Translations under genes and position numbers: made by a program | Assembly: GCA_013239625.1 (NCBI GenBank) | Contig: MU053557.1 | Coordinates: 3,750,123-3,814,122 of the forward strand | From: Lama guanicoe | Taxonomy: Eukaryota | Length of the DNA stretch: 64,000 bases | Reading direction: 5' to 3' | Part shown: one piece after another, positions 15,801-54,824 of the stretch | How the letters are laid out: the number at the start of each line of letters is the position of its first letter | Position numbering within the stretch: the first letter of the stretch is position 1 | The notes under the pieces: model-generated | What the model saw: the letters and a program-made list of their open reading frames with translations, nothing else | What the model was told of the DNA's origin: nothing | The model's database searches: none

Positions 15801-18800
15801 GTCCCCAGAACTTACGCATCTTACAGCTGCAAGTTTGTACCCCTGACCGCTTTCACCCAGCCCCCACTCCCCCGCCCCTGGCAACACCAATTTCTGTTTC
15901 TGTGAATGTGGCTTTTATATTCCACAGATAAGTGATGCCACACAGTATTTGTCTTTCTCTATCTGACTTATTTAGCACAACACCCTCAGGTTTTACCCAA
16001 ATTGTTGTTAACGGCAGGATTTCCTTCTTTCTCATGAAGGCTCACTCGTAGTCTCGGTTTATCCAGAAAGCCCCTCCCTGAGGCCTGTTGAATCTCCTCA
16101 CCTTTGATCTTTCATAGGTTTTATAGACCGTGATGTGCAACACAACATACACACATACATTTCATATCCGTCTCCATCAATTTCGTCAGCTCTCTTCTGT
16201 ACCTAGATTACAAGCACCCTCAGGAGAACGTCGATGATAAATATTCACACACCCACCAGTGTCAGCACAATGCTGAGGCCATGCCAGAAGCCTGTTAAAT
16301 GCTAACTGATTCACTGCTACATGCAATCATTTTTCTTCTTTCCTCTTACTCTGCATTACTTACTCGTCATAAACAGACAAAAGCATAGGAAGGGTAGAAA
16401 ACCAAGCTGAGAAAATGTTTTCATTTTGCAGGAACTCTGCAGTGAATTTCGGAGCCAACTGAGGAACGGAATGCTCATATGCACCAGGGAGAATGACCCT
16501 GTCCGTGGCCCAGATGGCAAGATGCACGGAAACAAGTGTGCAATGTGTGCCAGCATGTTGTGAGTGTCCCTGCACCTCCTCACCACTGACCATCCCTGAG
16601 TCTCAATCTCTTTGTAAATGTATAGAATATGTACCGTGGTTTGTATGCGAGATCATTTTAAAAGCCCATGGACAAGGAATTATGTAATATTTAATCACTT
16701 AGTGACAACATTATTCTCCATTCGGTAATCTTTCTTCTAGCTAAGTCAGGGAAGAGTCTTAATATATGGAAGTAGGTTTTTAACACTTGATAATCATCAC
16801 TCATAACAAAGAGAGCAGAAGACGGATGATCTGGGTGGGACTGTCTCTCTGGTCTCTCACTCCTGACATTTTGATTCTGTGAGTATATTCAGATACTGGT
16901 TAAGGGAAACCCGGTTGGGCAGAGGTCTATGGGGCCAGCATGTAAACACGTCTAAAATAGCCTGAACAAGAAATGGAACAGAGTGGGTTGTACTTATCTT
17001 TTTGGGAGCATTACTACAGGCAAGTGAAATAAATACTTTGCTAAGTGGCTTAAAGAGTGAAATCCCCAAGAGTTCGGCCACGTAACAGACATTTACTAAA
17101 ATGTCCTCTTGAGTAGAGCTCCACTGTGTGGGACGACAGAGATGCTGGCTGTCACCACCTCTGCTGCTTTTCCTTGTAAGACTCCCAGTTCCCTCCCAAG
17201 CCTCACACTAAAATACATGCTCAGAAAAATATTCAAATAATATTTAAAGAGCTTCAAAGAGTTTCAAAGTTGTTTCCCCTTAACTTTCACATGTCTTGGT
17301 CTCATCTTAAGTATATGCACACAGTTCCTTAAAGGAGAGCTTGACAGAGGCAGCCAGTAGATTAAACGGGCCCTGAGATTCAAGAAGTCAGGGCTCTCCC
17401 CTCACCTGCCGCGTCTGCTGGGGCTGCGGTAATGACCGTATCACAGGTAATAAACGCTGAGGATCTTTCTAGTGCTGACAGGCTTCGTGCCACTAAACAC
17501 ACAACAAGAATCCAACATCTTAGGCTCATGATCGACCTCCAAAGATTACTGGTTGAACCTTCTTGGACTTGAATCATCATTGCACTCTAAAACTTGAATT
17601 TCAATGCAATTAAAATAATATTTAAAATTTAATTTTACAGTGAAACATGGTTTATTTTGATTAGGGGCCCGTGGTCTGACCTCGTATCACCCCTTGCTCT
17701 CATCATGAATACGGTGGCTATTTAGATAGAAAAAGCTGCACAATTAAAAAAAGTCAAGGCAGCTGTGGCTTTTTTCAGATCATTGATTGAAATCACTGAC
17801 TGATACGTAAAAGACACCTCAAAGTTCACACACTGATGAAAAAGCATGCTAGTTTTATATTTCTAAGAGGGATTGGAAACTACTGAATTAATCTGCATTA
17901 TTGGGCAAAGCATGAGCACCTCTTGACTGGATAAATTTGTACTGAAGACTTATTATGACCTTTGGTCTGGAAGATCCTCCTTCGTTCTTAAAATATATTA
18001 CAAAAGAAAACAGATGAATGGTGGTTAGTAAGGAAATTATTTCATATATATTACAAATATTAGCAGCCAGATTTTGATTGTTTTAGAGGAGGAATTGTTT
18101 CTCAGACTCTCCTTTATGTAACATAAGCAAATCGACAAATATCTTGATTAACTACTAGTGATAGTTATTGGGATATTATATAATTCATGATCTATAAACG
18201 TTTAAGTCCATAAGATTAAAAAAAATGTTACCAAAGAGAATGGGAAATTGCAGTCAGCTTGTATCTTTTTTTATTGCAGCAAACTTGAAGAAGAAGAGAA
18301 GAAAAAAAATGGCAAGGAAAAAAAGGAGAAAGCTGAGGCCGAGAAGGTTAAGAGAGAAGCAATACAGGTAGTTGTTTCAGACCATCAGAACCACAAAAAT
18401 AGCCCGTTCCCTCCAGGCAAGGCTCCCGCCATCTCCTCCAAAATGTATTTAGATTCTCATATATAAGAAGATCCCTTCTTCCTTATTCAGTTTATTCACC
18501 TCAGATCTGATCTAGTTGCTTGTGCATTTGAGAAGAAGCCGATCCCCCTTTTCTCCACTGACCATGTGAATTATACTACCCCATGAAAGAAGTGTATACA
18601 CACTGCTGTCTTGTCTGAATGCAAACCAATACAGGTAGATTTTAGAATTTTCTCCATACCTTTTTGTATAAGCGTGTTTAGTTAAAAAAACAAAACAAAA
18701 CACAAACCTAGGTTTTTCATCCCAGTTGACTGTAAGATTTTGGGAAAATAACTTAAAAGCATCTTTGAGCCTTGGGTTTGTTTTCTGTAACATCTCACAG

Positions 18801-27800: not shown

Positions 27801-30800
27801 CAAATGAAAGATGGAAAACTTATTTGCACCCGAGAAAGTGACCCTGTCCGGGGCCCAGATGGCAAGACACATGGCAATAAGTGTGCTATGTGTAAGGAAA
27901 AACTGTGAGTATTTTTTCAAAAATGGGCCTCAAATTGTGAACCTTAAAGTAAATAATCATTTCTCATCAATTTGAGAAAATGAGTTTTTGTTTTTTAAAG
28001 CATATCTAGTAATTAATGAGGTGTTTGTTCACTTTGTTTGAAATGTTTCTTCCCATTTTTTTCCCCCTAAGGGAAAGGGAAGCAGCTGAAAAAAAAAAGA
28101 AAGAGGAGGACAGCTTGAGAAATACAGCCGCAAATGACGATGAAAAACAGGTAATGTCGGTTAGACATCCTTATACTTAAATTTGGGTGGTTGGTTGTAA
28201 GATTGATTCATTCAACAAGTATTTATGGAATGCCTACTCTGTCCCCGTCATTGTGGACTTAGTGAGAAACAAGCAAGACATGCCAGATCTTCAAAGAAAC
28301 AGCACGGAATTCAGTGCCCTAAGAGCAACTCTGATGCAAGTACCACACATTTGTAGGAACAGTGGCAGCTGTCAAATTATTGCTGGTGTCAGATACATTT
28401 TTTTCCTGAAGTTTTAAAACAATTAGGCAAACAGATTCCAAAATTACAAACAAGAAAGCAAGTATCAAAAACTTGGAGGTCCAGATGATAAAGTCTTGAC
28501 TTGGCATTCTAGTGCCATCTTGTGCTCAACTTGGGGTGTTAAACATAATGTTCAGGGCTTTACAACACCGACACACAGACTGCGACACAGCACGGTCTCT
28601 TCTAATCCATTTATGGACTTCAGATAAAAAAGTAAAATAGTAAGAATTTCCCCAGGGAAGTTTTCCCATGAATGAGGCAACTTTTCATCAGTTCTGTACT
28701 GACTAAACAAACTGAAACACTAAGAGTAATTATCGTTTTTAAAAAAATATGTTGGGAATATCTGATGTGCATTTGGGTAGATGAAGGGCTTTGAGAAAAG
28801 ACTGTTGTACGACTTCCAGTGATCTCTACTGGCCATCTATTCAATTTATAATCTTGGTTGATTTTTTTTTTCAGCTTTTTAAATAAATATTTAAAAATTA
28901 AAGATTTTAGGAATTTCAAACAAGATAAAACTATGTATGTATAGAAAATACCTAGATTTTTTTTGTGCACATGGCAAAAAGAAAGCTAGTCTGATCTGAT
29001 ATGCAAAGTAAAGCGAGCTTTACAAAGCACGTGCACCGTCATATTGAAACCCGCCCAACATCTATGCAGTAGGTGGTACTGTTCCAATTCTACAGCTGAG
29101 AAACTCAGAGAAGTTAACTACACATAGATAACAAATAGAAGAGCCAGAGATTTGTACCCATAGCGAAGGCTGCAACGCAGGCAGATGAGTGCTGTCATAA
29201 ACATATGTGTATGGGGTATTTGGGGTGCCTGGAAAAAGAATTCTAGTAACTTCTAAAAATGACAGCGTTGAGATATTTAGTATGGTGATCAGGTATTCAG
29301 TTCCAGAGAACTGTAGAAATGCTACAGACAAAAGTAGGTCTGGAGTCATTCATGGGTATCACAATTTAAAGAAAGGGAAACTACAGTCTCGGTTACAGTG
29401 CTTTTTAAGGTGCTCCTCCGTAACTCTGCTTTGGCTCTTTGAGGTTAGGAAGGGAGTTTAAGACAAACTTCTTTGGATGTCCGAAAATTCCAACAGAGGT
29501 CAACGCCTGTGGACCCTGTTCCATTGCTTTCTTTTTTAAGGTTCTTACTTTTCAATAAATGAAAAGGGCAGCTCCGTGTCCTCCCTGATGTATAAGAGTC
29601 TTCTCTGCCATGTTAAGGCAAAGAAGGCGAGACGTAGAGCCTGATTGTTAGCAGGTTTCTGATCACAACCCCAACATTGACTCTAATTACTTATTCTCTC
29701 TGAGCTTAATTTTTCTCATCTGTAAAATAGGGATAACGAGTGTTTACCTTACAGGTTTTTTAATGACAACCAAATGAAATGCATTAGAGCACACAACAAA
29801 GTGCCTGGACTATTATACAGATTTGGTTTAAATTTTTTAAAAAAATTTGTTCTCGAGGAATAAAGCTAAAACTTTACATGTCTACATGTCTCGCCAAAAG
29901 AGTGTCTTTCAGTTCTTTCCACAGCTTTTTTATGTGTGGAGGAATGAGTAGAGGTGCAGGGAGACTGGTTTGGGGTTCAGCCTAATGAATATTGTATGAA
30001 AATGGTACAAGCTGCCTGAGGTGGCAGTGAAATTCCATTGTGGCAAGACAGTTATTTGAGAAGGATGCTACAGAGAGGAGTCAAGCTTCTTAAACAGACA
30101 TTGAATACAGGGCCTTTCAAACACATTCTATCTCTAAAATTTTATTTTCTCTAGGTTTTATTTTCCTCCTCAAGTGTTGTGAGCTTATATCTAATCAACC
30201 AATCATGTTTTCAGTTTTAAAGATCAGACTATCATAGTAACACCTTGCTTTGTTCCTGTTGGCAGGATCAGTGTCATGAATTCCGGGACAAGGTGATAGA
30301 GGGAAGAGGTCTTGCCTGCACCAGAGAAAACAACCCTGTTCGTGGTCCAGACGGCAAGATGCATGTCAACAAGTGTGCTATGTGTCAGAGCATCTTGTAA
30401 GTGAAGAAGAGGTCCATCAATCAGTTTAATAAGTTGTGCCTGTTTGCCAGAAAATAGTTCCTCTTAATCTAAAACTTAAGGCACTTGGCTTCACACATTA
30501 AAAAATACAATAATGGCGCCCTACTTGAGAAGAGAACAGTAAGTTTCCAAAGTACTTTCCTAAGGAATTTATATTTTGATGATGAGAAGCATAATAATAC
30601 CTGGAGCATCTGGGATAGGAAGACAGCTGCTGGGTCATGCCAAGATCATCAACTTTCCAAAAGGAAGCTTATCAGAAAATTAACATGGGGCAGGCCGGGT
30701 CACTGTGCAGAGCCTCAGTCCCTCTTGTATATAAGAGACTAATAACTATGCAATACTGTTTTTGTAGGGATGTGAAGAGAGAATTTTTTTAATGTTTATA

Positions 30801-33800
30801 AACTTTAAAGCATAACTATGTAAAGAACAATCCATCCTGGAGAGCTCCATTTTAATTTAATTAAAAAATTGAAAAAGGAGAAATGAAGCAACTTCTCTAT
30901 ATGAAAGCCATAAATAGGAAAAAAATAATGGCCTTTTAAATTTATATAATTCTGCATGACAGGATAGTAACTGGATTTATGAAAGGTGATAGCATTACCA
31001 CAAATGTATAATGAAAACGCCAACAGTCAAAATTCATTTGGTAAAGTATCTTAGATTTCTTTTCAGATACAAGAAAACTTTGTTAGATACTGTAATGTTT
31101 AAAATTGGAGAAATACTTGGTAAAAAAAATTGGGCAGAAACTATGGAAGAACTACCCTATCTTTTTTTAAATTCTGCAGTGAGCGAGAAGCTAATGAAAG
31201 AAAAAAGAATGAAGGCGGAAGATCAAATGCAAGGCCGTCAAATGATGCAAAGGTTATTTCCTAAAAGATACGAAGATAACTATTTTACTGTTCATCCTCA
31301 GATTCCTGCATTCTCCTCCACTTTTTGGATAATAAAATTGCTAATCTTCTGCTTCAAAGAAAAGTGGTTTTGCCAGTCTTGTTCACTTTGGGTTATAATG
31401 AGATTTATTTTCTGGTTTCGAAGTTTATCGTTTTTCTCAATTTTATAGAGACTTCTCCTGCAGTGTGTGTCGAATATTGCTTTAGTCTCTCCTCTTTGGG
31501 AGAAATGTGGATTGAAAAATAGTAAAATTTTTTACCACCTCAACTGCACGCTTGCGTCTGACACTTTAAATGTGAAACGAGGCTTCAGGTAGCTTGTTGA
31601 CACTGACTTTAATAATTCAGGCAAAATAAACAAGTCTCAAAGCCTCCCCTTTGGTGTCTCTCCTTGATGTCCTTTCCATTTTCTCCAGATGGCTCTCTGA
31701 GCAACAACGGATCAGTAGCAGCATGCATGAAGCTGCCTTTTCTATTTGCTCATGAAGACCTCAAAGAAGACATCTTCAACCAGTCCTCTAAGAGTGATGA
31801 TCACATTTGCAGAGTTAGATTCCTGTGAGATTGTCCTTTGGTCAAGAGTACATACACCTCATGTAGAAAATGGGGAAAATGAAGGATTGATAGAAAGGAC
31901 GAGAGAGACGAGGAGGTCTATCAAGTATTGTTTTGTGTTTCCCTACATTTCCAGCACCAGAGCAGAGAGGTTCGGAATGAAGCGGAGGATGGGAGTTTAG
32001 ACTGTCTGGGTGTTCCTTGGCCTCCACTGCCAGGATGAGTGCAGTGAGTCTGAGTCCAGAGCCAAGAGAGGGCTTCCTGAAACCAACTTTGAGAAAACCA
32101 CCAAGCCAAGAAGGGAAAAGCCATGCCCACTGCCCCTTTCTCATTTTCTAGGATGAGTGCAGTAACTTCCGCAAGTACGCAAGGAATGACGAGCTTGTGT
32201 GCACTCGAGAGAACGACCCCGTGCGCGGTGCCGATGGACAGTTGTATAAAAACAAGTGCTACATGTGCAGAACTATCTTGTGAGTAAGAGGGTCCTGAGC
32301 CCCCAGCTAGAGGGGGAACTGCATTTTTAGAGACTGTTGATTAAATAGACATGTGCTCATGCATCCATGGGGGCCTTGAACCAAGTCTTTAGATGCAAGG
32401 CTCTTAAGTTAAAAATACCTGCTATAAGAGAAAGCAAGCTTGGACTGGAAGACGGAAAATCCAGACGTAAGTTCCAACCATGATATTTACTAGCTGTGTC
32501 ACTTAAAAAATGTTTTGTATTTTTTTAACTCTCAGGTTCATAGTTACAGGAAGTTGTTCCAGATCTTCACTCCACAACTAGATCAGACTCAACAGAAAAG
32601 TCAAACACACACGCACACACACACACACACAGATTTTCTATCTCAAATTTTTATACGTCTGGAGTCAGGGTCTCCAGGACTAAGGAATTTGTTATTTTAG
32701 AAAGAGTTTCTAGTTTATTCTGATGAACAACCATATTTGGGTATGGCAGATGGTGATGATGATGGTTGTGGAAAAACACTATGAAACACAATAATAATAA
32801 TCAGTATTTTTTTTTTAGCTCCTCGAAGTATGTTCCTTGAGGTAGGAATTACCAATACTACCCTCTTTTTATGTTCCAGGAAATCTAAGTTCAAGGAATT
32901 TAAACCACTTGTTCAAGGTCGCACATCTATTAAGCGACAGGAGTGCTAAGCCAGCTCGAAGCTATGTACTTTTCTTAACATGTCATCCTAATCATGCTCT
33001 CACTGAATGTTCTGTGGTTCCATCGTATTTCATTAGAACTGCTTAGCTTTCCCCGGAAGTTATAGGAGCTAGCCTTTTTAGCTGTAAATTTAAAATACTT
33101 TTGTCTTCTTCTCTAGTCGAAAAGAAGCTTTGGAAATGACAAGCATTCAAGAAAGGCCATCCCACGTTAGATCTTCTGAAGGGGAAGACAATCCAGATTC
33201 TTCCGTTAGGTCTCTGGTAAGAAAGGCGACTTCTAAAAAGTTACTTAATTCACTTATTTTAGGGGGCCTGTTGCCACTTGCTCTCCATAAACCTCATTCC
33301 ATGTGAAGGTCGGGGAAAGACTGATTCAGAGCAGCCTCAAGTCCTTTGAGGCTTAAGTGGAGTTCATGCTTAGTAACTAAGAGTTCTGGGATTATTCATT
33401 GGTGCATAACTCTGTGCTCCTTGAGATTACTGGCCTGCTCCAAGCGAATTTAATACACTTTTGAAATTTTAAAAAGTGGGTATATAATGAATGTGACTTA
33501 TGGCACATGTGGTCACATTAGCAGTTAGGAGCCTCAATTCTGTAATTTCAGCAGACCAGAAAGGCTCCTCACCCAGCTGCCTCTCACTCCCCCTCTAAGC
33601 CTGGGACACTCTGCTAAACATATTTATACTTGGAAAATTCCACCAATGAGCAATTCACAGTAGTTCAAACTTTTTATTTAAAATGTAGGCTGATGGCCAT
33701 CAGTAACGTGTACCTTGGTGTCACTGAACCTAAATGGGATTGCTTCTTTAGAGCTTTACCAAAGTCAGTAGAGAGAAGGAAAGAGGATACGAGAGCATAA

Positions 33801-36800
33801 GGATATTCATTCACGAAGCACAATCTCCGATTGGGCCCCAGAAGGGAGACTCTAGCACCTAGTCTGATAACCCAACAAGGGAGAAAGACAGGTATAAAAA
33901 AATGATTATTTTTCCAAATCAAATAGGATAATAGATGAGTTACACTAGCGAAATGTATACTAGTTACATATTTCTAGTCAATGAGGCACTACACTAGGGA
34001 TCCCCCAACATGGAGGAGAGCTGTTCACACAATCTGTTACCCTGCCCCTGGCTTTACTGAGCTATATAGTTGACATATAACACTGTGTAAATTTGTGTAC
34101 ACACACTGATTTTGCTCCCCTTAAAGACTGCAAAATGATTACCACTATAGTGTTAGCTAACACCTCCATCACCTCACATAATTACCATTTCTTTTTTGTG
34201 GTGAGACTATTGGAGTATACCAACTTTTGAGTATATCACATAGTATTATTACTATAATCACCAGACCATATATTAGAGTCCCAGAACTTACTCATCTTTT
34301 AATTAAAAGCTTACACCCTTTGACCAATGTCTCCTCATTTTCTCCAGTCCCATCCCTACCACCATTCCACTCTGTTCTGTGAGTTTGGCTTTAGATTCCT
34401 CATGTAAGTGATATCATGCAGTATTTATCTTTGACTTCTTTAACTTAGCATAGTACTCTCAAGGCTCATCCAAGCTGTCACTAATGGAAGGACTTCCTTT
34501 TTCATGGCTGAATAATATTCCTTTGTGTATATATGTGTGTGTGTGTGTATCTTGGCTACTATTAATAGTAAAGTTTGTTATTTTTTAAAAGCATTTTACT
34601 GAAGTAAAATAGCCACACAGAAAAAATGCACATAAGTGCACTGCTAAATGAAATATTACAAAGTGATCACATCTGTGGTATTAATACGTATGTGAAGAAA
34701 TGAGAGAGTACCAGCACACCAGAAACCTCATGCTTCCTCCTGTATTATCTGGTTTTGAGCCGAGCTTTCTCTTGAAGAGAACTACACTCAATATTCACTT
34801 TGTCATTTATTTAGCCATCATTTATGGATTCTACAAGTATTTCTTGAGTACCTACTACTTTTCAAGCATTACTATGTATATGAGAACAATAGCCACAAAC
34901 AAAGCAGAACTCTCTACACTTACAGAGTTTCTATTGGAAGAACAAAGGTAATAGATGATGTGAATAAATAAAATATAATAGCAAGGGGGAAATAAAATAG
35001 AAAAATGATACAGTAAATGGTTGTACAGGAAAGAGCTGTCTTCACTATTTATTCACACATGACTGAGGAAATCAGAAGTGTTTCCCAAGCCCGTATCTCT
35101 TGAGTGCCATTGAGTGAATCTGCTTTATGTGTTGCTTGTTCAGGATGCTGCCATGTGCAAACACTACAGAGTACTGCCCAGGATGGGTTACCTTTGCCCA
35201 AAGGACTTACATCCTGTCTGTGGTGATGATGGCCAGACATACAACAACCCCTGCATGCTGTGTCACAAAAACCTGTAAGTATACAAGTCGAATGATTCCG
35301 TCCTCCAGTGTAGAGGTTCTTGAAGACAGTACTGCCCCACAGTAGCGTACTCATATAAATTTGAGGTGTGTTGCAACCAATTTACTAATCATAGCAGTTA
35401 TGAATGATCTTGTTCACGCATAAAGCAGAGGATCTAAGGTTATCCCTTTAATAAGACTGTTCCTATACTTTACTGAATGGAAGAGAAAGGAAAAAGTGGT
35501 GGGGTGACAATCATTAGAGAAAATCTCGCTAAGCCCATGTGCACCCATGGGAGTGTGAACGTCATCTGTCCTCTGTGTAAAGAGAAAACAGTTGAGAATC
35601 ACTGCTATACAGAGTCAGCCCAGCCTCTAATCTCTAACGGGCCTTATGACTACCCGATAGTCACAGACTCCCTATGCCCCCAAGTCTCCTTAGAGCAGGA
35701 AGTGCTAACAAGCAAAAAAAAAGCACAATGGAGCCGGTGGCAGGCCTGGTGTCTGTTCTCAGCTTCATTCTAATCTGTGCGTCTGCGGGCATATTATCTC
35801 ATCATTCTGAGATTCAGTTCCTTCATTGGAAAACTGGAGACGGTTCTCTTAGCCAGCTGACATCACAAGATTATTAAGAAAAATTACTATTATTCTTTTA
35901 GTTAAATACAAGGGATTTGTTTGAATACTTTCATTACTGGTTGCAGATTTGTTGGTGCTTTTCTGCTCAGACGCTATTTTACCCATTCACGTTCCTCACC
36001 TTTCCCCAGCCTCCATCTCCCCAGCTTTAAATGAGAGCACGGCGGCACATCTTGACTTTCCTGCCCCACCCAACCCAGACTTGCAGCACAGTCCATGAGT
36101 GTTTGTTCTCTCTCTCTTAGGATACGATAAGCAAGGCCCAGAAATTGAGGATGGGCCTGTTATCCTGATTTTCAATCCCAGAAAAATATTTGAGTTTACA
36201 TTTATTTTCTTTTAAATCAAAGAACTCACAAAAGAAAAAGCCATCGATATACGTAGTTCATATACGTAGACTAAAATCTGAATATGCGTGCTTTATATCA
36301 TAAGTAAGACACTTTCATATTCACAGTTTCACTGAATCCTCACTCCTCACTATGCAGTGGCAATATCTTCATTGTACAGAAAGTGAAACTGAGGCTGAGA
36401 GACTCCAGGTAATTTGTTTAAAACGGCAAAGCTAGGAAGTAGATCAGACAGGATTTTAACCTTGTTGACTTGGGTGTAAATTCAGTTTTCTTTTCTCTCT
36501 ACTACACTATTGTTATATCCAAGGCAGTAGTTTCTTAAACATTTGGGCGTCAAAGATTCCTTTGATAATATGGAGAAAGTTATCTCTTCACAGACAAGAA
36601 AATGATGAAACATTAACAATTTGTATACACAAGGACTGTGGGTACATAAATCTCTGGAAATCCATATGTGGATTATAGAATTTTAAGATTTAAGGAATTG
36701 TTAATTCTTAAATATCTTAAATGTTTAAGGAATGAGTACACCCACTCATGAATTTGTTACTATATATACCTTATTTTCAGCCTAGAAATCCTCCAACTTC

Positions 36801-39800
36801 TCTTCATTGTAAATGTCAGGCCTAAATTTTCCACCCAACATTCTTTACACATTCTGCTAACCATATGACCCACAATGGGTCATACTCTACTCAAGGGAAC
36901 TTTAGCAATTTTACTAATTTCAGAAATGCACATGAAAAAATACTGATGAAGCATGCCTCAGGATGGATTGTTTGGCTAAAGGAACTAGGAGTATACAGAG
37001 AAGATTCAGGCTGTCTCATGGAAGAGGGAACATGACTGGTTTCTGTGGTCTCAGAGGAAGCGATAGGGAAGCAGTTTCACCTTGAGCGATGATCAAGAAC
37101 AAAATCAACTGCCTTGATAGACAATGAGTTTCCCACCACCAAGGCAAACAAGTAGATATTTGATATATAATTTTTTTTAGAGAATGGCATTAAAAGTCAT
37201 ACCTTTTAAGATTCTTTCTATCAAATTCAACTTTACGATAATGTATTGCTATATTTATTATATACAGAGAATTTATATATACTTATATAAAATATATTGC
37301 ATTTTATAATCCCCAAGTCACATTACAGATATCCAGCAAAGTCAAACTTCTCTCTGGGATCCAATTTTCCCATCTTTAAAATAATGGCCTTTGGACTAGA
37401 CGAGCTCCAAGTTTATTTCCAACATTCAACAATTCCATGAGTGTACAGTTGAATGGGTCCAGGCCTGGGGCACAAATGAGGAGTTAAATCAGAAGAGGGA
37501 GAAGAAACCTGAATGATGCCTACCAGAAAGTAGCTGAATACAGATCCCAGCCCCTACCCCTAATTTCAGTTCTGGTTTTTGATGCCCAAATGGCACTCAT
37601 ATTAATCCTTCTTTTTTTCTCATTATAACAAAGTGTTCCCATCTTTGTTTTAGAATATACCAAACTAATACACACATACGCAGTGAAGGGAGGTGTGAGG
37701 AGAATGGCATCCCAGAAACAACACCGGTCAGCCTGCCCGCATCTGTAAGTACGCCGGCGTCCGTGGTTACCGCGTTAGGACCAGCTGGTTCTGCTTCTGT
37801 ACTCTTGTCCTGAGTGATGGACATATCTCTGACCAGGAAAATCATACCAGGTCAGGTAACCCTAGAATTGGTCACATCTTCATTGTGAAGATAACTAAGT
37901 AATTACTAAAATATGTAGGAACAGAAATACAGTCTTTAACATTTAAAAATATTTACTGGGATCATTAACAGATTAAGTGCAGTGTCCATAATGTAACACT
38001 GTTGCAGAATAAGTTTTATTTTCTGTGACCTCCAATAAAAAGATGAGACAGAGACCAAGAGAGGTCAGTGACAGAACTGGACTGAAACCATTTCTGTGTA
38101 GCCCCCACACATCCTTGTGCTTTGCATTGTTACCCAGCATGAAAAGTTGACCTTTTCATTTAACTCCCTACAAGGATGTTTCCACACACATTACAGTAAC
38201 CCTACCTTATCTGAGGTTTTACTTTCCATGGTTTCAGTTACCTAAGGTCTGAAAATATTACGTGGAAAATTCCAGAAATAGACAATTCCTAAGTCTTAAA
38301 CTGCATGCTGTTCTGAGCAGCGTGACGAAATCCTGCAGCGCCCCACTCTGTTTCTCCTGGGAAGTAAGTCATACCTTTGTCCAGTACATCCCGCCTGTCA
38401 GTCGCTTAGCTGTCATCTACGTTATCAGATTGACCGCTGTGGTAGTGGAGTCTTTTGTTCAAATAACCCTCATTTTACTGACTAATGCCCCCAAAGTGCA
38501 GGAGTATTGGTAATGGAAATTAATGTATGCCAAAGACGCCAAAACGTTCTTCCTTTAAGTGCAAGGTGAAAGTTCTAGGTTCAATAAGGAAAAAAACCCA
38601 TATGCTCCGGTTGCTCAGGTCTTCAGTAAGAATGAATCGTCTATCCATGAAATTATGAAGAACAAAAAAGAAATTCATGCTAGTTTTACTGCCACACCTC
38701 AAACTGCAAAAGTTACAGCCACAATGGGTGATAAGTGGTTAGTTAAGATGGAAAAGGCTTTAAGTCATGTCTGGAAGACACAAACGGAAAATGTGTTTTG
38801 ATTTGTGCGTGTTGCACCAAAAAGCATTGAGCCTAAACGAGGACTTTGGCAAGGGATCCCTGGAAATTAGTGACACCAAGCCATTTGCTGCAAGTAAAGA
38901 ATGGTTACACAGATTCAGGGACAGATTTGGACTGAAAAGTGTAGCACTTAGAAAGACTGCATCTGCCAGCGAAGCAGCTTTGGCCACATTTCCAGCAGAA
39001 TGGAACAAGTTGATTAAGGAGAAAAGATACCATCTAAATCAAGTCTTCAGTTACAGTGAGACCAAGCTCCTCTGGAAAAAGATGCCCAATAGAACCTACG
39101 TTTATAAAAGTGCAAGGTCTTAATGCTCTCATTAAGCACCAGGGCATAAAACATGAAATGACACATTCACTCTGGTACTATGACAAGGTAACGCTGTAGA
39201 GCACATGATTAAGCCAGACATGGTGTAAAGAGTGAAGGACCACTTGCTCTCAAAAACAAAAACAAAAATTATCACCCATGTACTGGTAAGACTCTGAAAG
39301 GGAGGGTGACAGCCATCTTGTTCATGAAATGGTTTCACCAATGCTGCATCCCAGAAGTGAAAAAATACTTGGAAGAGGTAGGGTTAGAATTTAAAGTCCT
39401 TTTAATAATAGACAATGCACCTGGCCATCCTGAATCTATTTGCTATGAAAATGAAAATGCTGAGGTTGTATTTTTTACCTACAAATAGAACTTTACTGCT
39501 TCAGCCCCTTGACCAGGGCATCATTGAGTCTGTCAAGACCACATACACCTGCCTGGTATCTGGTCACTTTTTATCAGCAACTGATGAAGACCCTACTCTG
39601 GACATAATGCAGTGCTGGGAATCATTTACTACTGCTGACATGATAACATTCATCAAAGCTGCAATGGATCGATTAAAACCAGTGACTGTAAATAACTGCT
39701 GGAAACATTTATGGAGTGAAGTTGTAATGATTATAAAGGTTTCCCAAGGATCAATGGAGAAGTTAGGAAAATCATTCATGGGGCGAGACAAGTTGATGGG

Positions 39801-42800
39801 GAAGGATTTTCTGACATCCTTGATGAAGAAGTCGAAGAACATATTGAAGGCCACTGAGAAGTATTAATGAATGAGAAGCTGGAAGAACTCGTTGAGTCAT
39901 CTACAGAGGAAGAGGAAGATAAAGAAGAAACTAAAGCAGAACCAGCAATTTACATTACCAAAACTTGCCAAACCATTTCTAACTGCAGACATTAAAGGAC
40001 AAAATTATGGAAGACAATCTTTAGATGGAACACAGCATTAACATCACCCATATGATCCCTGAAGGATTACAACCTTGAAGCGTTAGAAAGAGCAACAATT
40101 TCTGATTAGAATGTTCTTCTAAACGTTTTGGGCAAAAAACCTTTCAACTATCAAGGATTCCCAACCATTGACATCATTTTTTGGTATCTAGCCACCAACG
40201 CTGTCATAGCTTGAGTATACAGGATCACCTGAAGCAAAGATCCTCCTCCTGACCTACTGTCAGGTCAGTGGTGGCCTGACACCGTGTCACAATTCCAGCG
40301 TCATTCACCACATATCATCCCATCACGTAGAGAGATTGCATTCATGTAACTTTTATTACATAATATTGTAATTGTTCTATTTTATTATTATTTCTTGTTA
40401 TTTATCTCTTATCACGCCTAACTTTTAAATTAAACTTTATCATAGGTATGTACGTATGTATAGGAAGAAACAGTATATATAGGGTTTGGTGTTACCCAGG
40501 CATCCAGTAGGGATCTTGGAATAAATTTAACATTCCGCCTGATACTGCGTTTGAGGAATCTCTTTCTCAGGCAAGATGATATATAACCTGGGGAAAAATC
40601 TAGGAATTTTCAAATAAGAGAGAATTTTTCGTTACCAAGAAAATACAGGTTCAGAGTTTGATATGTTTTTCATATATGAGACCTTTGGCAAATCATATAA
40701 ATATGTAACCAAAGATCTCACTGAGTTATAGAAAATATGTACTGAATACTGACTTTCAAGGATTTGGCACAGTGTTTAAAAATTAATAGCTATTATTATT
40801 ATGCCTAAGAGTCTAAAGTATGAATATAAAGAAACAGACCCTGGTGCAGTGCTTATTTTTAATAATTTTAATAAATAATGTTTTAATAAATTTATATTTG
40901 ACATTGAAAATATATTTCTTTAAGATAGTTACTTATTATGATTCACAACTTTTTGGCTCCTTTTCCCTGCCACCAAAAGCTCTGGCAATATGGAATTAAA
41001 AACAATTCCACCGGATTTGGGGATCTTAAGCAACACTAGATGAGGCCATATTCAAAAGAAGTACTCAGTGAGCCCTGATACGGGAAACTGGAAAAACAAG
41101 AGTTGTCAGCTAGGTGTTTCTGGTTTCGCACTGGCAGCTGGGAGGCAGAGGAGAGTAGGTGTGGTACTGGAATGAAATCAGGAGACCTTCATTGTTTTCT
41201 CATGTGGGTTGAAAAAGTCGTTTGTCTACTCTTTATGGGTCTTTACACACCCATAAAGACAGGGTTTAAACTTTTGCCCTAGTCCCTATACTATCTTTGC
41301 CATCTTACTGCATATAGAAACTCTCGGTGGTTTGCTCCTCGTTTTATTGCCAGAATATAATCGTCCCCCCGCATCTCAAACACACCTGGTCACACACATC
41401 TCAGAACAGAGAGGTAAAAATAATCTTTACACAAGTCCTACAGACCACACCTTAGATCATGCCTTGCTGTCATTTCATATAGACAACTTGATGAAAACTA
41501 CTTTATGAGGAACTTGCCATAGAATAATGCTAATAAGATGTATTTATTCAAATAATGAAGAATCTCGCCAGAGCCAAGCACAAAAGGTTTCTGTAAGTTT
41601 CCTCCTTTCATTTTTGGGTGTTTTCTTCCCACTAGAGTTATATAACAGGCATTATTAAGGACAGGAATTACTTAGCATTATCTGATGGAACAAATCATTA
41701 GAACAAGAGGTATCCTGGGCATGAGGTTCAGTTCCTGCTTGCTGTATGATTCAATTATGTGATCTCGGATACACCAAGGTGATACGGTGTCACCCTGCAT
41801 TGTTCTGGTAACTATTACGGGTACATATCCCAGAAGTTAGAACCTACTGCCTAAACATTTTTTTCCTGTTCTCTGTGAGAATCTGGAACCTCGAGAATAA
41901 AGAAAAGTCCAGGCACTTACAACTTTCCTGGAAAATTAGATTGAAAATCCTGGAATCCAAACTTTTACTTCTTATTCCAAGAAGTACTTTACATTATACA
42001 GTAGACATAACTACCAAGATTTATGTAACTTTTTCAAGTTTTGTGTGATCTTCCCTTTTGCATCCTCACAATAAACCTGTATTCAGGGCAGGGATCATTA
42101 TCTTTCCCATTTTACAGAAAATCAACCCTGGGAGAAATCCTGCAATTTACCAAAGTAATTGAATATTATATTTGAGGTCCAGTGTAGATTTTCTGCCTTC
42201 ATTTTTTATCCTCTGCCACCATCCTTTAGTTGTCAGGAGATTCTGAAAACCAGGGGCTCTAGAGAAGGCATTATCTCAAGTAATTAAAGATTAGCTACAT
42301 TGGAAGGAAATTCCTATGTCAAGAAAAATATCAATACTATTTTGAGAGATGAGTAAATGACTTATCAATTTCATGACAAAGATCTTCAAGGACTCAACAA
42401 GATTACAGCTGCCAACAAATGACAGGAAGCCTTATGGGGTAAATGTGAGAACGAATACAGAGGTTTGAGTTTGGAATAATAAAATTGCTACTGTTACAGG
42501 TGAGACCAGCAGACAAGATGCAGTTACCCATTTAAACATTTTTTAAACACTGATATTATGTTTTAAATGTTGATTTTAAGAACATATGACTAACAGTAAT
42601 CAAAACAGCATGGTATTGGCATAAAAACAGACATATGGATGGATGGAACAGAACAGAGAGCCCAGAAATAAACCCACTGACCTATGGTCAATTAATCTTT
42701 GACAAAGGGAAACAAGAATATACAATGGAGAAAAGATATAGTCTCTTCAGCAAGTGGTGCTGGGAAAACTGGACAGCCCTATGTAAATCAATGAAGTTAG

Positions 42801-44580
42801 AACACTCCCTCACTCCATACCCCAAAATAAATTCAAAATGGCTTAAAGACTTAAATACAAGACGAGACACGATAAATGTCCTAGAAGAAAAGATAGGCAA
42901 AACATTCTCTGACATAAATCTTAGCAATGTTCTCCTAGGGCAGTCTACCCAGGCAATAGAAATAAGAGCAAAAATAAACAAATGGGACCTAATTAAACTT
43001 ACAAGCTTTTGCACAAAAAAGGAAACCATAAGCAAAACAAAACAACCACCTATGGAATGGGAGAAAGAATTTTCAAATGATGTAACTGATAAAGGCTTAA
43101 TTTCCAGAATATATAAACAGCTCATACAACTTAATAACACGAAAAACAAACAAACAAACAACCCAATCCAAAAATGTGCAGAAGACCTAAACAAGCAATT
43201 GTCCAATGAAGACATACAAATGGCCAATAGGAACATGAAAAAATGCTCCATATCACTAATTATCAGAGAAATGCAAATCAAAACTATAATGAGGTATCAC
43301 CTCGCACCAGTCAGAATGGCCATCATTCAAAAGTCCACAAATGACAAATGCTGGAGAGGCTGTGGAGAAAAGGGAACCCTCCTACACTGCTGGTGGGAAT
43401 GCAGTTTGGTGCAGCCATTATCCTCAAAAGAAATAGACTTACCGTATGACCCAGTGATCCCACTCCTGGGCATATATCTGGAGGGAACTCTAATTCAAAA
43501 AGATACATCCTCCCCAATGTTCATAGCAGCACTATATACAATAGCCAAGACATGGAAACAGCCTAAATAAATGTCCATCAACAGATGACAGGATAAAGAA
43601 ATTGTGGTATATTTATACGATGGAATACTACTCAGACATAGAAAAGAATAAACTAATGCCATTTGCAGCAACATGGGTGGACCTAGAGACCGTCATTCTA
43701 AGTGAAGCAAGCCAGGAAGAGAAAGAAAAATACCATGTGATATCACTCATATGTGGAATCTAAAAAAAAAAAAAAAAAAAAAAGAAAGAAAGAAAACAAA
43801 GGACCCTATGAACTCAACTACAAGACAAAAACAGACTCGCAGACATAGTAAACAATCTTATGGCTACAGGGAAAGGGGGTGAGAAGGGATAAATTTGGGA
43901 GTTTGAGATTTACAAACACTAGCCACTATATATAAAGATAGATTTTAAAAATTTCTTCTGTATAGCACAGGGAACTATGTTCGGTATCTTATAATAACCT
44001 TTAATGAAAAAGAATATGAAAATATATGTATATATATGCATCACTAGGACATTGTGCTATACACCAGAAACTGCCACACTGTAACTGACTGTACTTCAAT
44101 TAAAAAAATATATATATGACTACATGGATGAGTCAGGCAAGGAAACTAGCTGATTAAATTCTCATGGCCTCAAACAAACTGTAATAGTAAATCATTAATT
44201 GCTATAGGAATTGGATTTAAGTCCTGACCAAATATGAGACCTTTGGCAAGTCACTCAACTTCTCTGAAGCTCAATTTCCTCCTTTGTGAAATGATGTGAG
44301 TGAGAGCTTCCTCTTTTCATTACCATGAAGGTTACACATAATCAAAAGCAGAGTTCATTTTTATATCTACCTCAACAGGTAATATGTACAAGGTGTTCAA
44401 TAAATACTCATTGAAACGAATGATATGTGAAAATGATTTGAAATTGTGTGTTCTTGGCAGAATGCGGGGATCTGGATTTCTTTGATTATGGTACAGTTAT
44501 TATATGTACAGCCTGAGTTTCTACAGTGTCTTTGAGTTGCTAGCATCTAACCTACTCATCTTCTCTTCTAGTTCAAATGA
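700..44580 (+). CDS. SPINK5: SPINK5 / LEKTI, 5'-partial multi-exon CDS (27 exons, domains D3-D15; start lies upstream of the window)
   Basis: Manually spliced exons with canonical AG/GT boundaries sum to 2730 nt with no internal stop. Repeated C-x13-CTRE(N/S)DP..GPDG..HGN.C.MC domains separated by Lys/Glu-rich linkers match human LEKTI from DVCSAFRP to the C-terminus. Confidence 0.97.
2279..2360 (+). CDS. SPINK5: SPINK5 linker exon D3-D4 (exon 8 equivalent)
   Basis: aacag|CTTAAAA...GAACAG|gtaaat, 82 nt, [27 protein letters not shown]. Confidence 0.92.
3085..3260. mobile_element. MIR SINE (one of many MIR/L2 relics in the window)
   Basis: gagcaagtcgtctctcctctctgggcctcaattttcttgtcagtaaaat, MIR core. 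Confidence 0.6.
4200..4965 (-). mobile_element. Two adjacent antisense L1 3'-end fragments (~4200-4380 and ~4385-4965)
   Basis: poly-T head followed by ttttattgaagtata..., then tagattccacatgtaagtga and gatggacatgtaggttgcttccat, typical reverse-complemented L1 3' ends; boundaries approximate. Confidence 0.8.
6098..6225 (+). CDS. SPINK5: SPINK5 exon 9 equivalent, domain D4
   Basis: taaag|AATCTC...ATCTT|gtgagt, 128 nt, [42 protein letters not shown]. Confidence 0.95.
7586..7673 (+). CDS. SPINK5: SPINK5 linker exon D4-D5 (exon 10 equivalent)
   Basis: tccag|CAAACAG...ACTGAG|gtgagg, 88 nt, [29 protein letters not shown]. Confidence 0.94.
8480..8670. repeat. Polypyrimidine low-complexity tract
   Basis: ~190 nt of almost pure C/T. 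Confidence 0.8.
9369..9496 (+). CDS. SPINK5: SPINK5 exon 11 equivalent, domain D5
   Basis: ttcag|AAACTC...TTCTA|gtgagt, 128 nt, [42 protein letters not shown]. Confidence 0.95.
10721..10802 (+). CDS. SPINK5: SPINK5 linker exon D5-D6 (exon 12 equivalent)
   Basis: ttcag|CCAAGCA...TACGCA|gtgagt, 82 nt, [27 protein letters not shown] (RNKR convertase site). Confidence 0.94.
11920..12047 (+). CDS. SPINK5: SPINK5 exon 13 equivalent, domain D6
   Basis: ggcag|GAGCTG...TTCTT|gtgagt, 128 nt, [42 protein letters not shown]. Confidence 0.95.
12474..12555 (+). CDS. SPINK5: SPINK5 linker exon D6-D7 (exon 14 equivalent)
   Basis: tttag|CCAAGCA...TTTGAG|gtgagg, 82 nt, [27 protein letters not shown]. Confidence 0.94.
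12899..13026 (+). CDS. SPINK5: SPINK5 exon 15 equivalent, domain D7
   Basis: cacag|GAGCTG...TTCTT|gtgagt, 128 nt, [42 protein letters not shown]. Confidence 0.95.
15342..15390 (+). CDS. SPINK5: SPINK5 linker exon D7-D8 (exon 16 equivalent)
   Basis: tatag|TCAACAA...GCGGGG|gtaatt, 49 nt, [16 protein letters not shown]. Confidence 0.93.
15565..16035 (-). mobile_element. Antisense L1 3' fragment (L1MA-like)
   Basis: agctttattgagatat...ttccacagataagtga...tgacttatttagca; minus-strand ORF resembles the L1 ORF2 end ([11 protein letters not shown]); boundaries approximate. Confidence 0.75.
16432..16559 (+). CDS. SPINK5: SPINK5 exon 17 equivalent, domain D8
   Basis: tgcag|GAACTC...ATGTT|gtgagt, 128 nt, [42 protein letters not shown]. 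Confidence 0.95.
18280..18367 (+). CDS. SPINK5: SPINK5 linker exon D8-D9 (exon 18 equivalent)
   Basis: tgcag|CAAACTT...ATACAG|gtagtt, 88 nt, [29 protein letters not shown]. Confidence 0.93.
19900..20370. mobile_element. MaLR LTR (MLT1-like)
   Basis: gctgtaacaaattactgcaaacttggtagcttaaaa ... ccttgtgattacattgggc...atccaggataat, hallmark MLT1 motifs; boundaries approximate. Confidence 0.75.
20671..20798 (+). CDS. SPINK5: SPINK5 exon 19 equivalent, domain D9
   Basis: ggcag|GAGCTG...TTCTT|gtgagt, 128 nt, [42 protein letters not shown]. Confidence 0.95.
21444..21507 (+). CDS. SPINK5: SPINK5 linker exon D9-D10 (exon 20 equivalent)
   Basis: tacag|CCAGCAA...GAAAAG|gtagct, 64 nt, [21 protein letters not shown]. 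Confidence 0.93.
23117..23244 (+). CDS. SPINK5: SPINK5 exon 21 equivalent, domain D10
   Basis: cttag|GATATG...GTCTT|gtgagt, 128 nt, [42 protein letters not shown]. Confidence 0.95.
24761..24860 (+). CDS. SPINK5: SPINK5 linker exon D10-D11 (exon 22 equivalent)
   Basis: tccag|CCAGAAA...GCTCAG|gtgagc, 100 nt, [33 protein letters not shown]. Confidence 0.94.
25806..26042. mobile_element. hAT-Charlie MITE (MER58A-like)
   Basis: cagaagtcagca...tgtaaaaggccggatagcaaatattttag...gtttgctgaccctt, with imperfect terminal inverted repeats. Confidence 0.75.
26286..26413 (+). CDS. SPINK5: SPINK5 exon 23 equivalent, domain D11
   Basis: ttcag|GACCAA...ATCCT|gtaagt, 128 nt, [42 protein letters not shown]. 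Confidence 0.95.
26860..26932 (+). CDS. SPINK5: SPINK5 linker exon D11-D12 (exon 24 equivalent)
   Basis: tccag|GCAAAGA...GGAAAG|gtgaat, 73 nt, [24 protein letters not shown]. Confidence 0.93.
27235..27690. mobile_element. MaLR LTR (MLT1-like)
   Basis: gtggcttaaaacc...ggaggctctggggaggacccatttcttg...tgtgattacactgaacccacccagataatccaggataa; boundaries approximate. Confidence 0.75.
27777..27904 (+). CDS. SPINK5: SPINK5 exon 25 equivalent, domain D12
   Basis: ttcag|GATGTA...AAACT|gtgagt, 128 nt, [42 protein letters not shown]. Confidence 0.95.
28072..28150 (+). CDS. SPINK5: SPINK5 linker exon D12-D13 (exon 26 equivalent)
   Basis: ctaag|GGAAAGG...AAACAG|gtaatg, 79 nt, [26 protein letters not shown]. 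Confidence 0.92.
30266..30396 (+). CDS. SPINK5: SPINK5 exon 27 equivalent, domain D13
   Basis: ggcag|GATCAG...ATCTT|gtaagt, 131 nt, [43 protein letters not shown]. Confidence 0.94.
31180..31252 (+). CDS. SPINK5: SPINK5 linker exon D13-D14 (exon 28 equivalent)
   Basis: tgcag|TGAGCGA...GCAAAG|gttatt, 73 nt, [24 protein letters not shown]; weak donor. Confidence 0.92.
31955..32043 (+). pseudogene. Frameshifted counterpart of the SPINK5 long-isoform alternative exon (intron 28)
   Basis: ttccag|CACCAG...AGTGCA|gtgagt, 89 nt. Reads [13 protein letters not shown] then, after a one-base shift, [16 protein letters not shown], resembling the 30-aa insert of human long LEKTI as recalled. In-frame TGA at 32036-32038. 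Confidence 0.75.
32152..32279 (+). CDS. SPINK5: SPINK5 exon 29 equivalent, domain D14
   Basis: tctag|GATGAG...ATCTT|gtgagt, 128 nt, [42 protein letters not shown]. Confidence 0.95.
32605..32631. repeat. (CA)n microsatellite, interrupted
   Basis: acacacacgcacacacacacacacaca. Confidence 0.8.
33117..33216 (+). CDS. SPINK5: SPINK5 linker exon D14-D15 (exon 30 equivalent)
   Basis: tctag|TCGAAAA...TCTCTG|gtaaga, 100 nt, [33 protein letters not shown]. Confidence 0.93.
34050..34560 (-). mobile_element. Antisense L1 3' fragment (L1MA-like)
   Basis: gctttactgagctatatagttgacatataacactgtgtaa...tagattcctcatgtaagtgatatcatgcagtatt; same family as 15565-16035; boundaries approximate. Confidence 0.75.
35144..35274 (+). 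CDS. SPINK5: SPINK5 exon 31 equivalent, domain D15 (first five Cys of a classical Kazal domain)
   Basis: ttcag|GATGCT...AACCT|gtaagt, 131 nt, [43 protein letters not shown]. Confidence 0.95.
37654..37744 (+). CDS. SPINK5: SPINK5 exon 32 equivalent (sixth Cys of D15 and tail)
   Basis: tttag|AATATAC...GCATCT|gtaagt, 91 nt, [30 protein letters not shown]. Confidence 0.94.
38194..40522 (+). mobile_element. Near full-length decayed Tigger (pogo/Tc1-mariner) DNA transposon, Tigger7/MER44-like
   Basis: TA followed by cagtaaccctaccttatc TIR. Frameshifted transposase pieces: CENP-B-type HTH ([13 protein letters not shown]) and DDE motifs ([14 protein letters not shown]...QPLDQGII). Right end eroded. 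Confidence 0.9.
42593..44113 (+). mobile_element. 5'-truncated L1 (ORF2 C-terminus + 3' UTR + A tail) in the last SPINK5 intron
   Basis: 311-aa ORF 42635-43570 is the L1 ORF2 C-terminus ([24 protein letters not shown]); candidate TSD atatgacta at 42584-42592 and 44114-44122. Confidence 0.95.
44572..44580 (+). CDS. SPINK5: SPINK5 terminal exon, coding part (FK*)
   Basis: ttctcttctag|TTC AAA TGA. The following ~290 nt resemble the human SPINK5 3' UTR as recalled (cctaccttcaccatctgtatata...gcctgttcaataaaagta). Confidence 0.88.
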   Translation, partial: FK

Positions 44581-54677: not shown

Positions 54678-54757
54678 GTGTGTATTTGGCAGACCGCTTT
54701 TTCTCGCTCTCTCTGAACTTCCTGCTCAGAGCAAAACGGCCCTCCTTCATCATCACT

Positions 54758-54824
54758 ATGAAGAGCATCACCGCTTGTGTCATCCTTGCTCTGGCAGCCA
54801 CTACGTGGGCTGCCTCTCTACCTG
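54758..54824 (+). CDS. Kazal gene exon 1 (signal peptide)
   Basis: cactATGAAG...CTACCTG|gtgagt, 67 nt, [22 protein letters not shown], phase 1. Confidence 0.88.

Follow-up and report, generated by a model that had tools for sequence, protein, structure and literature searches.

Genes of SR proteins carry poison exons, cassette exons that are coupled to NMD, and NMD is expected by rule when a stop codon lies more than 50–55 nt upstream of the last exon junction. Minor alternative exons and pseudoexons are known to decay in a lineage-specific manner. The closest described system is the long isoform of human SPINK5, Q9NQ38-3, which excerpts of PMC12695657 describe as carrying a 30-residue insert at position 915, and which is credited to Tartaglia-Polcini et al. 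(2006) in the excerpts of PMC8959125 and PMC12695657. The latter also describe the inclusion of this insert as genetically variable, the level of the long LEKTI isoform varying with a common splice variant, and report the detection of its peptide by mass spectrometry and in plasma.

Here we describe the orthologous exon in a window of 64,000 nt from Lama guanicoe (contig MU053557.1). It shares with the human long-isoform exon its position between D13 and D14, its phase-0 boundaries and, by way of the read-through ORF P0129, 19 of 29 residues. It differs in being 89 and not 90 nt long, in reaching a stop after 27 codons and in having lost Asp1 and Cys3, and its inclusion in camelid transcripts is putative, whereas the human peptide has been detected. 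Like the poison exons of SR-protein genes, it is a frame-breaking cassette with intact splice sites and a stop far upstream of the last junction; unlike them, it shows near-baseline conservation, is in frame in other mammals and is frameshifted in one lineage only. It resembles cases of minor-exon decay in being minor, in evolving faster than its neighbours, in its one-lineage frameshift and in its patchy annotation elsewhere, but, unlike typical cases, it is old (Afrotheria and Boreoeutheria) and apparently derived from a repeated exon of its own gene. With LEKTI-type Kazal exons (128 nt, phase 0 to 2) it has in common a phase-0 start after a pyrimidine tract and, in other mammals, a cysteine at position 3, but it corresponds to their 5' part only, has no reactive loop or further cysteines, and ends in phase 0.

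We consider, with a probability of roughly 0.7, that this exon is the camelid orthologue of the long-isoform exon, that it arose from duplicated Kazal exon starts, that it is decaying without a regulatory job, and that any transcripts still including it would be lost to NMD. The comparative evidence points to decay rather than to regulation, sequence error, a stable truncated form or a micro-exon.

Gene structure and anatomy of the cassette exon

SPINK5, a gene of the skin barrier, lies on the forward strand of the window as 13 Kazal exons (D3–D15) interleaved with linker exons. Twelve of the 13 Kazal exons and all 12 linker exons match the alpaca protein P0063 in full, and the single differing residue over the mapped exons is in D9 (exon 20671–20798), where a His replaces the Arg of P0063 and of camels just before the reactive-loop cysteine region. 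The features around the cassette are the following (a slash marks the exon end in donor sequences):

30266..30396, + strand: D13 Kazal exon, 131 nt, phase 0 to 2; 43/43 residues as in alpaca P0063
31180..31252, + strand: linker exon upstream of the cassette, 73 nt, phase 0 end, donor AAG/gttatt; 24/24 residues as in P0063
31955..32043, + strand: 89-nt orthologue of the 90-nt long-isoform cassette exon, identified by residue match to inserts and by the frame change
32036..32038, + strand: premature TGA, preceded by 27 cassette codons; the last exon junction follows 455 nt downstream
32044..32151, + strand: cassette-to-D14 intron, 108 nt
32152..32279, + strand: D14 Kazal exon, 100% to alpaca SPINK5 XP_072811246; Pfam Kazal_1 E 1.3e-07
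33117..33216, 35144..35274 (D15) and 37654..37744, + strand: downstream exons; last coding bases 44572..44580

The D13 Kazal exon and the linker exon that follows it are presumably exons 27 and 28 in human numbering.

A first-pass annotation had proposed an 89-nt exon at 31955–32043 with a TGA in the incoming frame. Both were confirmed: the segment lies between an acceptor ending ...ccctacatttccag and the donor GCA/gtgagt, and, as the upstream linker exon ends in phase 0, the cassette reads 27 codons to the TGA at 32036–32038. The downstream exons at 33117..44580 (+) supply the junctions that would mark this stop as premature. Rescue of the frame by other acceptors was considered and rejected: those at 31963 and 31966 would give exons of 81 and 78 nt with a TGA at 31978–31980, and that at 31961 an exon of 83 nt.

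The long-isoform insert in other mammals

Read with an X at the gap, the cassette agrees with the cattle insert at 23 of 29 residues and with P0129 at 19 of 29, a similarity far above the level of chance. P0129 is a read-through ORF that holds a peptide described in excerpts of PMC12695657 as specific to the human isoform Q9NQ38-3. Thus, the identity with the human long-isoform insert, which the first-pass annotation had claimed, was borne out, and the cassette lies where the long-isoform exon does, flanked by the linker exon that follows D13 and by the D14 exon.

An in-frame insert model was found in 33 of 72 species (118 named proteins out of 128, with 10 left out as unnamed or fragment). 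The bearers include ruminants, hippo, peccary, donkey, rhinos, bats, moles, hedgehog, golden mole, rabbit and strepsirrhine primates. The insert is present as well in 11 of 30 further proteins, among them those of horse, horseshoe bat and manatee. This spread over species indicates that 90 nt is the ancestral placental state. The converse idea, that 89 nt is ancestral and that primates gained a base, originated from the resemblance of the frameshifted reading D-G-S-L-D-C to the Kazal D-G-K-L-S-C; it was rejected, as the 30-codon form occurs across Afrotheria, Euarchontoglires and Laurasiatheria. A search with the cattle insert against 1.84 billion representatives gave two matches, both read-through ORFs, and none from a marsupial or other outgroup.

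None of the 14 camelid proteins, which come from four species (alpaca, dromedary, Bactrian and wild camel), has the insert, as compared with 15 of 24 ruminant proteins, isoforms not being independent in these counts; models of this kind, none of which includes the cassette, cannot reveal a frameshifted transcript. The insert was also missing from all three sheep proteins, yet a sheep hybrid bears it, and three horse-family species looked insert-negative at first, so absent annotation does not prove loss. Two full-length models of elephant and two of colugo are without the insert, and altered inserts were found in peccary (P0070, 29 aa), Pipistrellus (P0001, 27 aa) and slow loris (P0128, changed start). 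Only 1 of 33 carnivore proteins has the insert, and that one is a 29-aa 'LOW QUALITY' model (African wild dog P0073); this near-absence suggests an independent loss in carnivores. The long isoform appears to be naturally knocked out in camelids and perhaps in most carnivores, suggesting that the insert can be dispensed with.

The insert evolves faster than the adjoining D14 and linker exons, with a mean identity among inserts of 0.63 versus 0.77 for each of the two. In 25 genera whose insert is 30 aa long, eleven columns reach a conservation of 85% or more. The camelid sequence is changed at three of them (D1H, C3S and I28M), and its missing base falls in a fourth (K14); of the 25 other genera, 24 differ at none or one, although these genera were picked to begin with DQC, which makes columns 1–3 invariant in part by choice. 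Overall, the change in the camelid insert (6/29) did not differ significantly from that in D14 (4/42, p = 0.30) or in the linker (6/24, p = 0.75). The picture is that of an optional exon that is old and weakly held.

Similarity of the cassette to Kazal exon starts

We built a Kazal-start matrix from the first 39 nt of 11 Kazal exons and used it to score the 63,788 other positions of the window. The two best-scoring of these non-Kazal positions, 31955 (rank 1) and 32034 (rank 2), lie in the cassette, both after a CAG and in register:

31955..32004, + strand: first putative Kazal-exon relic, 5' part of the cassette; 16.9 bits, nhmmer match 31943–32004 with E 0.41
32023..32074, + strand: second, weaker candidate relic, start at 32034 after CAG; 10.1 bits, nhmmer E 0.056

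The score of the first relic was not reached at any of 1,918,920 simulated positions (highest 16.4 bits), while that of the second was reached at 15, and chance alone produced it somewhere in 13 of 30 simulated windows of 64 kb. For comparison, true Kazal exon starts scored 19.9–43.5 bits when left out of the matrix, and the reverse strand gave at most 10.7 bits. In the nhmmer search, both relics came right after 14 true Kazal exons, each match beginning at the model's acceptor end. The first 39 nt of the cassette share 17–22 identities with each of 12 paralogous Kazal exon starts, and the second relic opens with 12 nt identical to the start of the D14 exon, which 2 of 500 shuffles equalled. 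At the protein level, a matrix of 312 Kazal N-termini gave the inserts scores from -11 to 17.5, versus a median of 37 for true domains; for 17 of 25 inserts, no more than 4 of 2000 shuffles with Cys3 fixed did as well or better.

Neither relic is a Kazal domain. The Pfam models Kazal_1 and Kazal_2 retrieved no family for the two relic frames or for P0129 (D14 control, E 1.3e-07). The four cysteines and the C-T-R-E-x-D-P reactive loop are absent from the insert, which in other mammals has only Cys3 and in the camelid no cysteine there. We also considered that the 3' half of the cassette derives from a linker exon, as a collapsed Kazal-plus-linker unit; this was rejected, since none of 11 linkers fell below a shuffle p of 0.03 (lowest 0.032). 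The two best matches to the 3' half are Kazal exon starts.

The first relic is thus well supported and the second suggestive, and the long-isoform exon is likely what remains of duplicated Kazal exons. The cassette acceptor was likely inherited from a duplicated Kazal exon start; the donor, whose GTGAGT falls within the Cys-Ser-Glu codons of the second relic, likely arose inside a second Kazal copy. Such an origin would explain where the 'cryptic' splice sites came from. It had been missed in the first-pass annotation and is new here; in the open-access literature that we searched, no Kazal-relic origin of the long-isoform exon was found.

Splice sites and the question of regulation

Splice sites were scored with small matrices made from the 26 acceptors and 26 donors of this gene, leave-one-out, and not with MaxEntScan:

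31935..31954, + strand: cassette acceptor, pyrimidine tract and CAG; 9.25 bits, 11 of 26 real acceptors score higher
32041..32049, + strand: cassette donor GCA/GTGAGT; 8.39 bits, 13 of 26 real donors score higher
18491..18565, 31689..31824 and 34348..34403: pairs scoring as high as the cassette with the splice matrices

Both cassette sites, which had been called strong, are intact, but their strength is typical of the gene. With the cassette included, 34 of 2,208 intronic AG and 17 of 1,732 intronic GT score as high as its sites, and in 33,382 intronic bases three other AG..GT pairs, 50–200 nt apart, equal or beat both of its scores. One of them, 31689–31824, sits in the intron of the cassette itself; all three are probably decoys. 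The cassette sites, intact and ordinary, do not alone demonstrate use. The linker donor at 31252 scored 2.4 bits leave-one-out, second lowest of 26. Base +1 of the cassette is C; in 30 of the 33 insert-bearing species the insert starts with Asp (codon GAY), and in 30 of 33 the start is D-Q-C.

Intact sites of this kind had led to the proposal that they tune LEKTI dosage. As a regulated poison exon, the cassette would divert a controlled fraction of the SPINK5 transcripts into NMD. Its anatomy fits this proposal: the sites are kept at middling strength, the stop lies 455 nt before the last junction, and the weak upstream donor may mark a splicing decision point. Moreover, excerpts of PMC12695657 place human inclusion under a splice QTL in skin and oesophagus, and this, together with the plasma peptide, means that inclusion can be measurable and is not necessarily negligible. 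The first 54 nt of the intron at 32044..32151 agree at 14 of 18 residues with P0129 and two bat read-through ORFs, versus 24 of 42 for the distal intron read as protein; this better-kept downstream intron is the sole hint of RNA-level constraint, although the difference is not significant (p = 0.15) and may date from the coding period.

Several observations argue against dosage tuning. By the same protein-level proxy, the cassette itself (19/29 versus P0129) is conserved at the level of the distal intron (p = 0.62), whereas the poison exons of splicing-factor genes are highly conserved. The sites are average and equalled by decoy pairs, conserved residues have been lost, base +1 has changed from G to C, and 32 of the 33 carnivore models lack the insert. 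In humans the long form is a minor one, according to an excerpt of the review PMC8959125. We found no report of a poison exon in SPINK5 in the open-access literature, and the camel and alpaca literature found there was without SPINK5. Regulated inclusion is therefore unlikely. Somewhat more doubtful still is a combined scenario in which a Kazal relic became a placental coding cassette and then a camelid regulated NMD switch for LEKTI dose in skin and forestomach. Were regulated inclusion true, the cassette would exemplify cleanly how a coding exon turns into a poison exon.

The decay that we favour can be pictured in four steps. In the intron preceding D14, a partial duplication of the 5' ends of Kazal exons would have provided the acceptor, in the first relic, and the GTGAGT donor, within the Cys-Ser-Glu codons of the second, and the 90 nt between these sites would have served the placental ancestor as a minor exon that preserves the frame. 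One base would then have been lost in the camelid stem, with protein constraint lapsing. The splice sites would have persisted because wasting a minor exon is cheap, because the gene is recessive in humans and because time or selection was too little to erase them. Normal camelid mRNA would skip the cassette and encode the 15-domain protein. According to an excerpt of the review PMC8959125, expression of the human full-length SPINK5 transcript exceeds that of the other transcripts about 40-fold, and the Netherton mutations tabulated in the part of the case report PMC9500337 that covers them include none downstream of exon 28; both lower the expected cost of wasting the cassette.

Position and age of the missing base

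31993..31996, + strand: site of the one missing base, in codon 14, where 23 of 25 genera have Lys

The loss of one base had been claimed near 31994. When a single N was added and the reading scored against 22 distinct 30-aa inserts, all from non-ruminant mammals, the best positions were 31993–31996; in tblastn with the read-through models of yak (P0024) and red deer (P0052), ruminants being outside the scoring set, the frame switches at 31993. Both agree with the claim.

If the missing base were an assembly error or a private variant, camelids could still produce the long isoform. The gap is situated in a run (GGG then A), with one A of a likely ancestral AA gone, and such runs are a typical context of indel errors. 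Searches for independent DNA of the gap region found none: a protein search with an antisense ORF gave 0 of 13 candidates, none of four window ORFs had an exact match on look-up, none of the 61 pattern matches in metagenome scans was confirmed, and a further scan gave no matches. However, four sequencing runs (two samples, one study), which may include the window's own source, contain a share of 1.00 of 129 words sampled from 31100–32400, of which about three are expected to span the gap, with a chance of about 0.04 that none does. RNA runs contained 0.12–0.47 of the sampled words, a share that does not count as evidence of cassette inclusion. Furthermore, the insert is absent from all 14 camelid proteins as opposed to its presence in hippo, peccary and ruminant models, and the camelid exon has lost conserved residues besides the gap. 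A sequencing error is unlikely, and we regard an error or private variant as an explanation of very low probability.

The absence of the insert from the camelid proteins and the Met at position 28 that the dromedary model P0041 shares indicate that the loss is likely older than the divergence between camels and the South American camelids, Camelus being judged here from protein models, not DNA. The first-pass annotation held that the long isoform cannot be made in this species; the 30-aa form is indeed lost, but the loss is likely camelid-wide and not specific to the species. As judged from these comparisons, then, the frameshift is likely real, shared by camelids and located in a known minor exon that has the anatomy of a poison exon, while its regulatory use is putative.

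Predicted consequence of inclusion

Inclusion had been expected to give either a 13-domain protein or NMD. The predicted product is 942 aa long with D1–D13 whole, and, with 455 nt between its stop and the last junction, the transcript is predicted to undergo NMD. A 13-domain form is also predicted to be available without the cassette, by read-through of the weak linker donor:

31253..31264, + strand: V-I-S-stop, read beyond the weak donor and predicted to correspond to the short 13-domain isoform of humans
31331..31336, + strand: AATAAA, candidate intronic polyadenylation signal for the short form

The models of elephant (P0098), black rhino (P0101) and horseshoe bat (P0136) end V-I-S-stop likewise, and human Q9NQ38-2 is described in an excerpt of PMC12695657 as truncated at 913 plus three residues. 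Unlike the long isoform, the short one with 13 domains seems to be conserved among placentals.

If transcripts with the cassette escaped NMD, a secreted 13-domain LEKTI with a new 27-residue tail would result, as a second short isoform. D1–D13 would be whole in it, excerpts of PMC12695657 describe 13-domain forms in humans, and the review PMC3014083, in the part on LEKTI fragments, states that these inhibit KLKs. Against a stable product of this kind stand the NMD prediction, with five junctions at or past the cassette end, the 13 domains already given by the read-through short form, and the lack of the 27-residue tail at the end of any of the 14 camelid models; we give it marginally less weight than an error in the sequence.

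Within the cassette, the CAG at 32031–32033, 10 nt before its donor, scores 10.9 bits, above the cassette's own acceptor. Its use as an acceptor with the cassette donor unchanged, which would give a 10-nt micro-exon and which is seen in P0041, where only the last 10 nt of the cassette are used, is the least probable explanation of all, as P0041 is 1 of 14 models, is likely a prediction artefact and stays in frame only because the linker exon is skipped too, as 10 nt after the linker exon shift the frame, and as the same CAG is implied in users of the whole exon (bat ORFs P0056 and P0058).

Additional features of the window

In the alpaca isoform X1 (P0010), a linker exon is extended by two residues (V-R), corresponding to a second donor 6 nt past 7673 (window 7671–7685). 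The last SPINK5 intron contains, at 38200–39500, a degraded transposase-like sequence, which we take to resemble the remnant of a Tigger-type DNA transposon. Downstream of SPINK5 lies another small SPINK-type gene, with a signal-peptide exon at 54755–54826 and a Kazal exon at 56102–56231 (Pfam Kazal_1, E 9.3e-11), which the wild-camel model P0050 wrongly joins to SPINK5.
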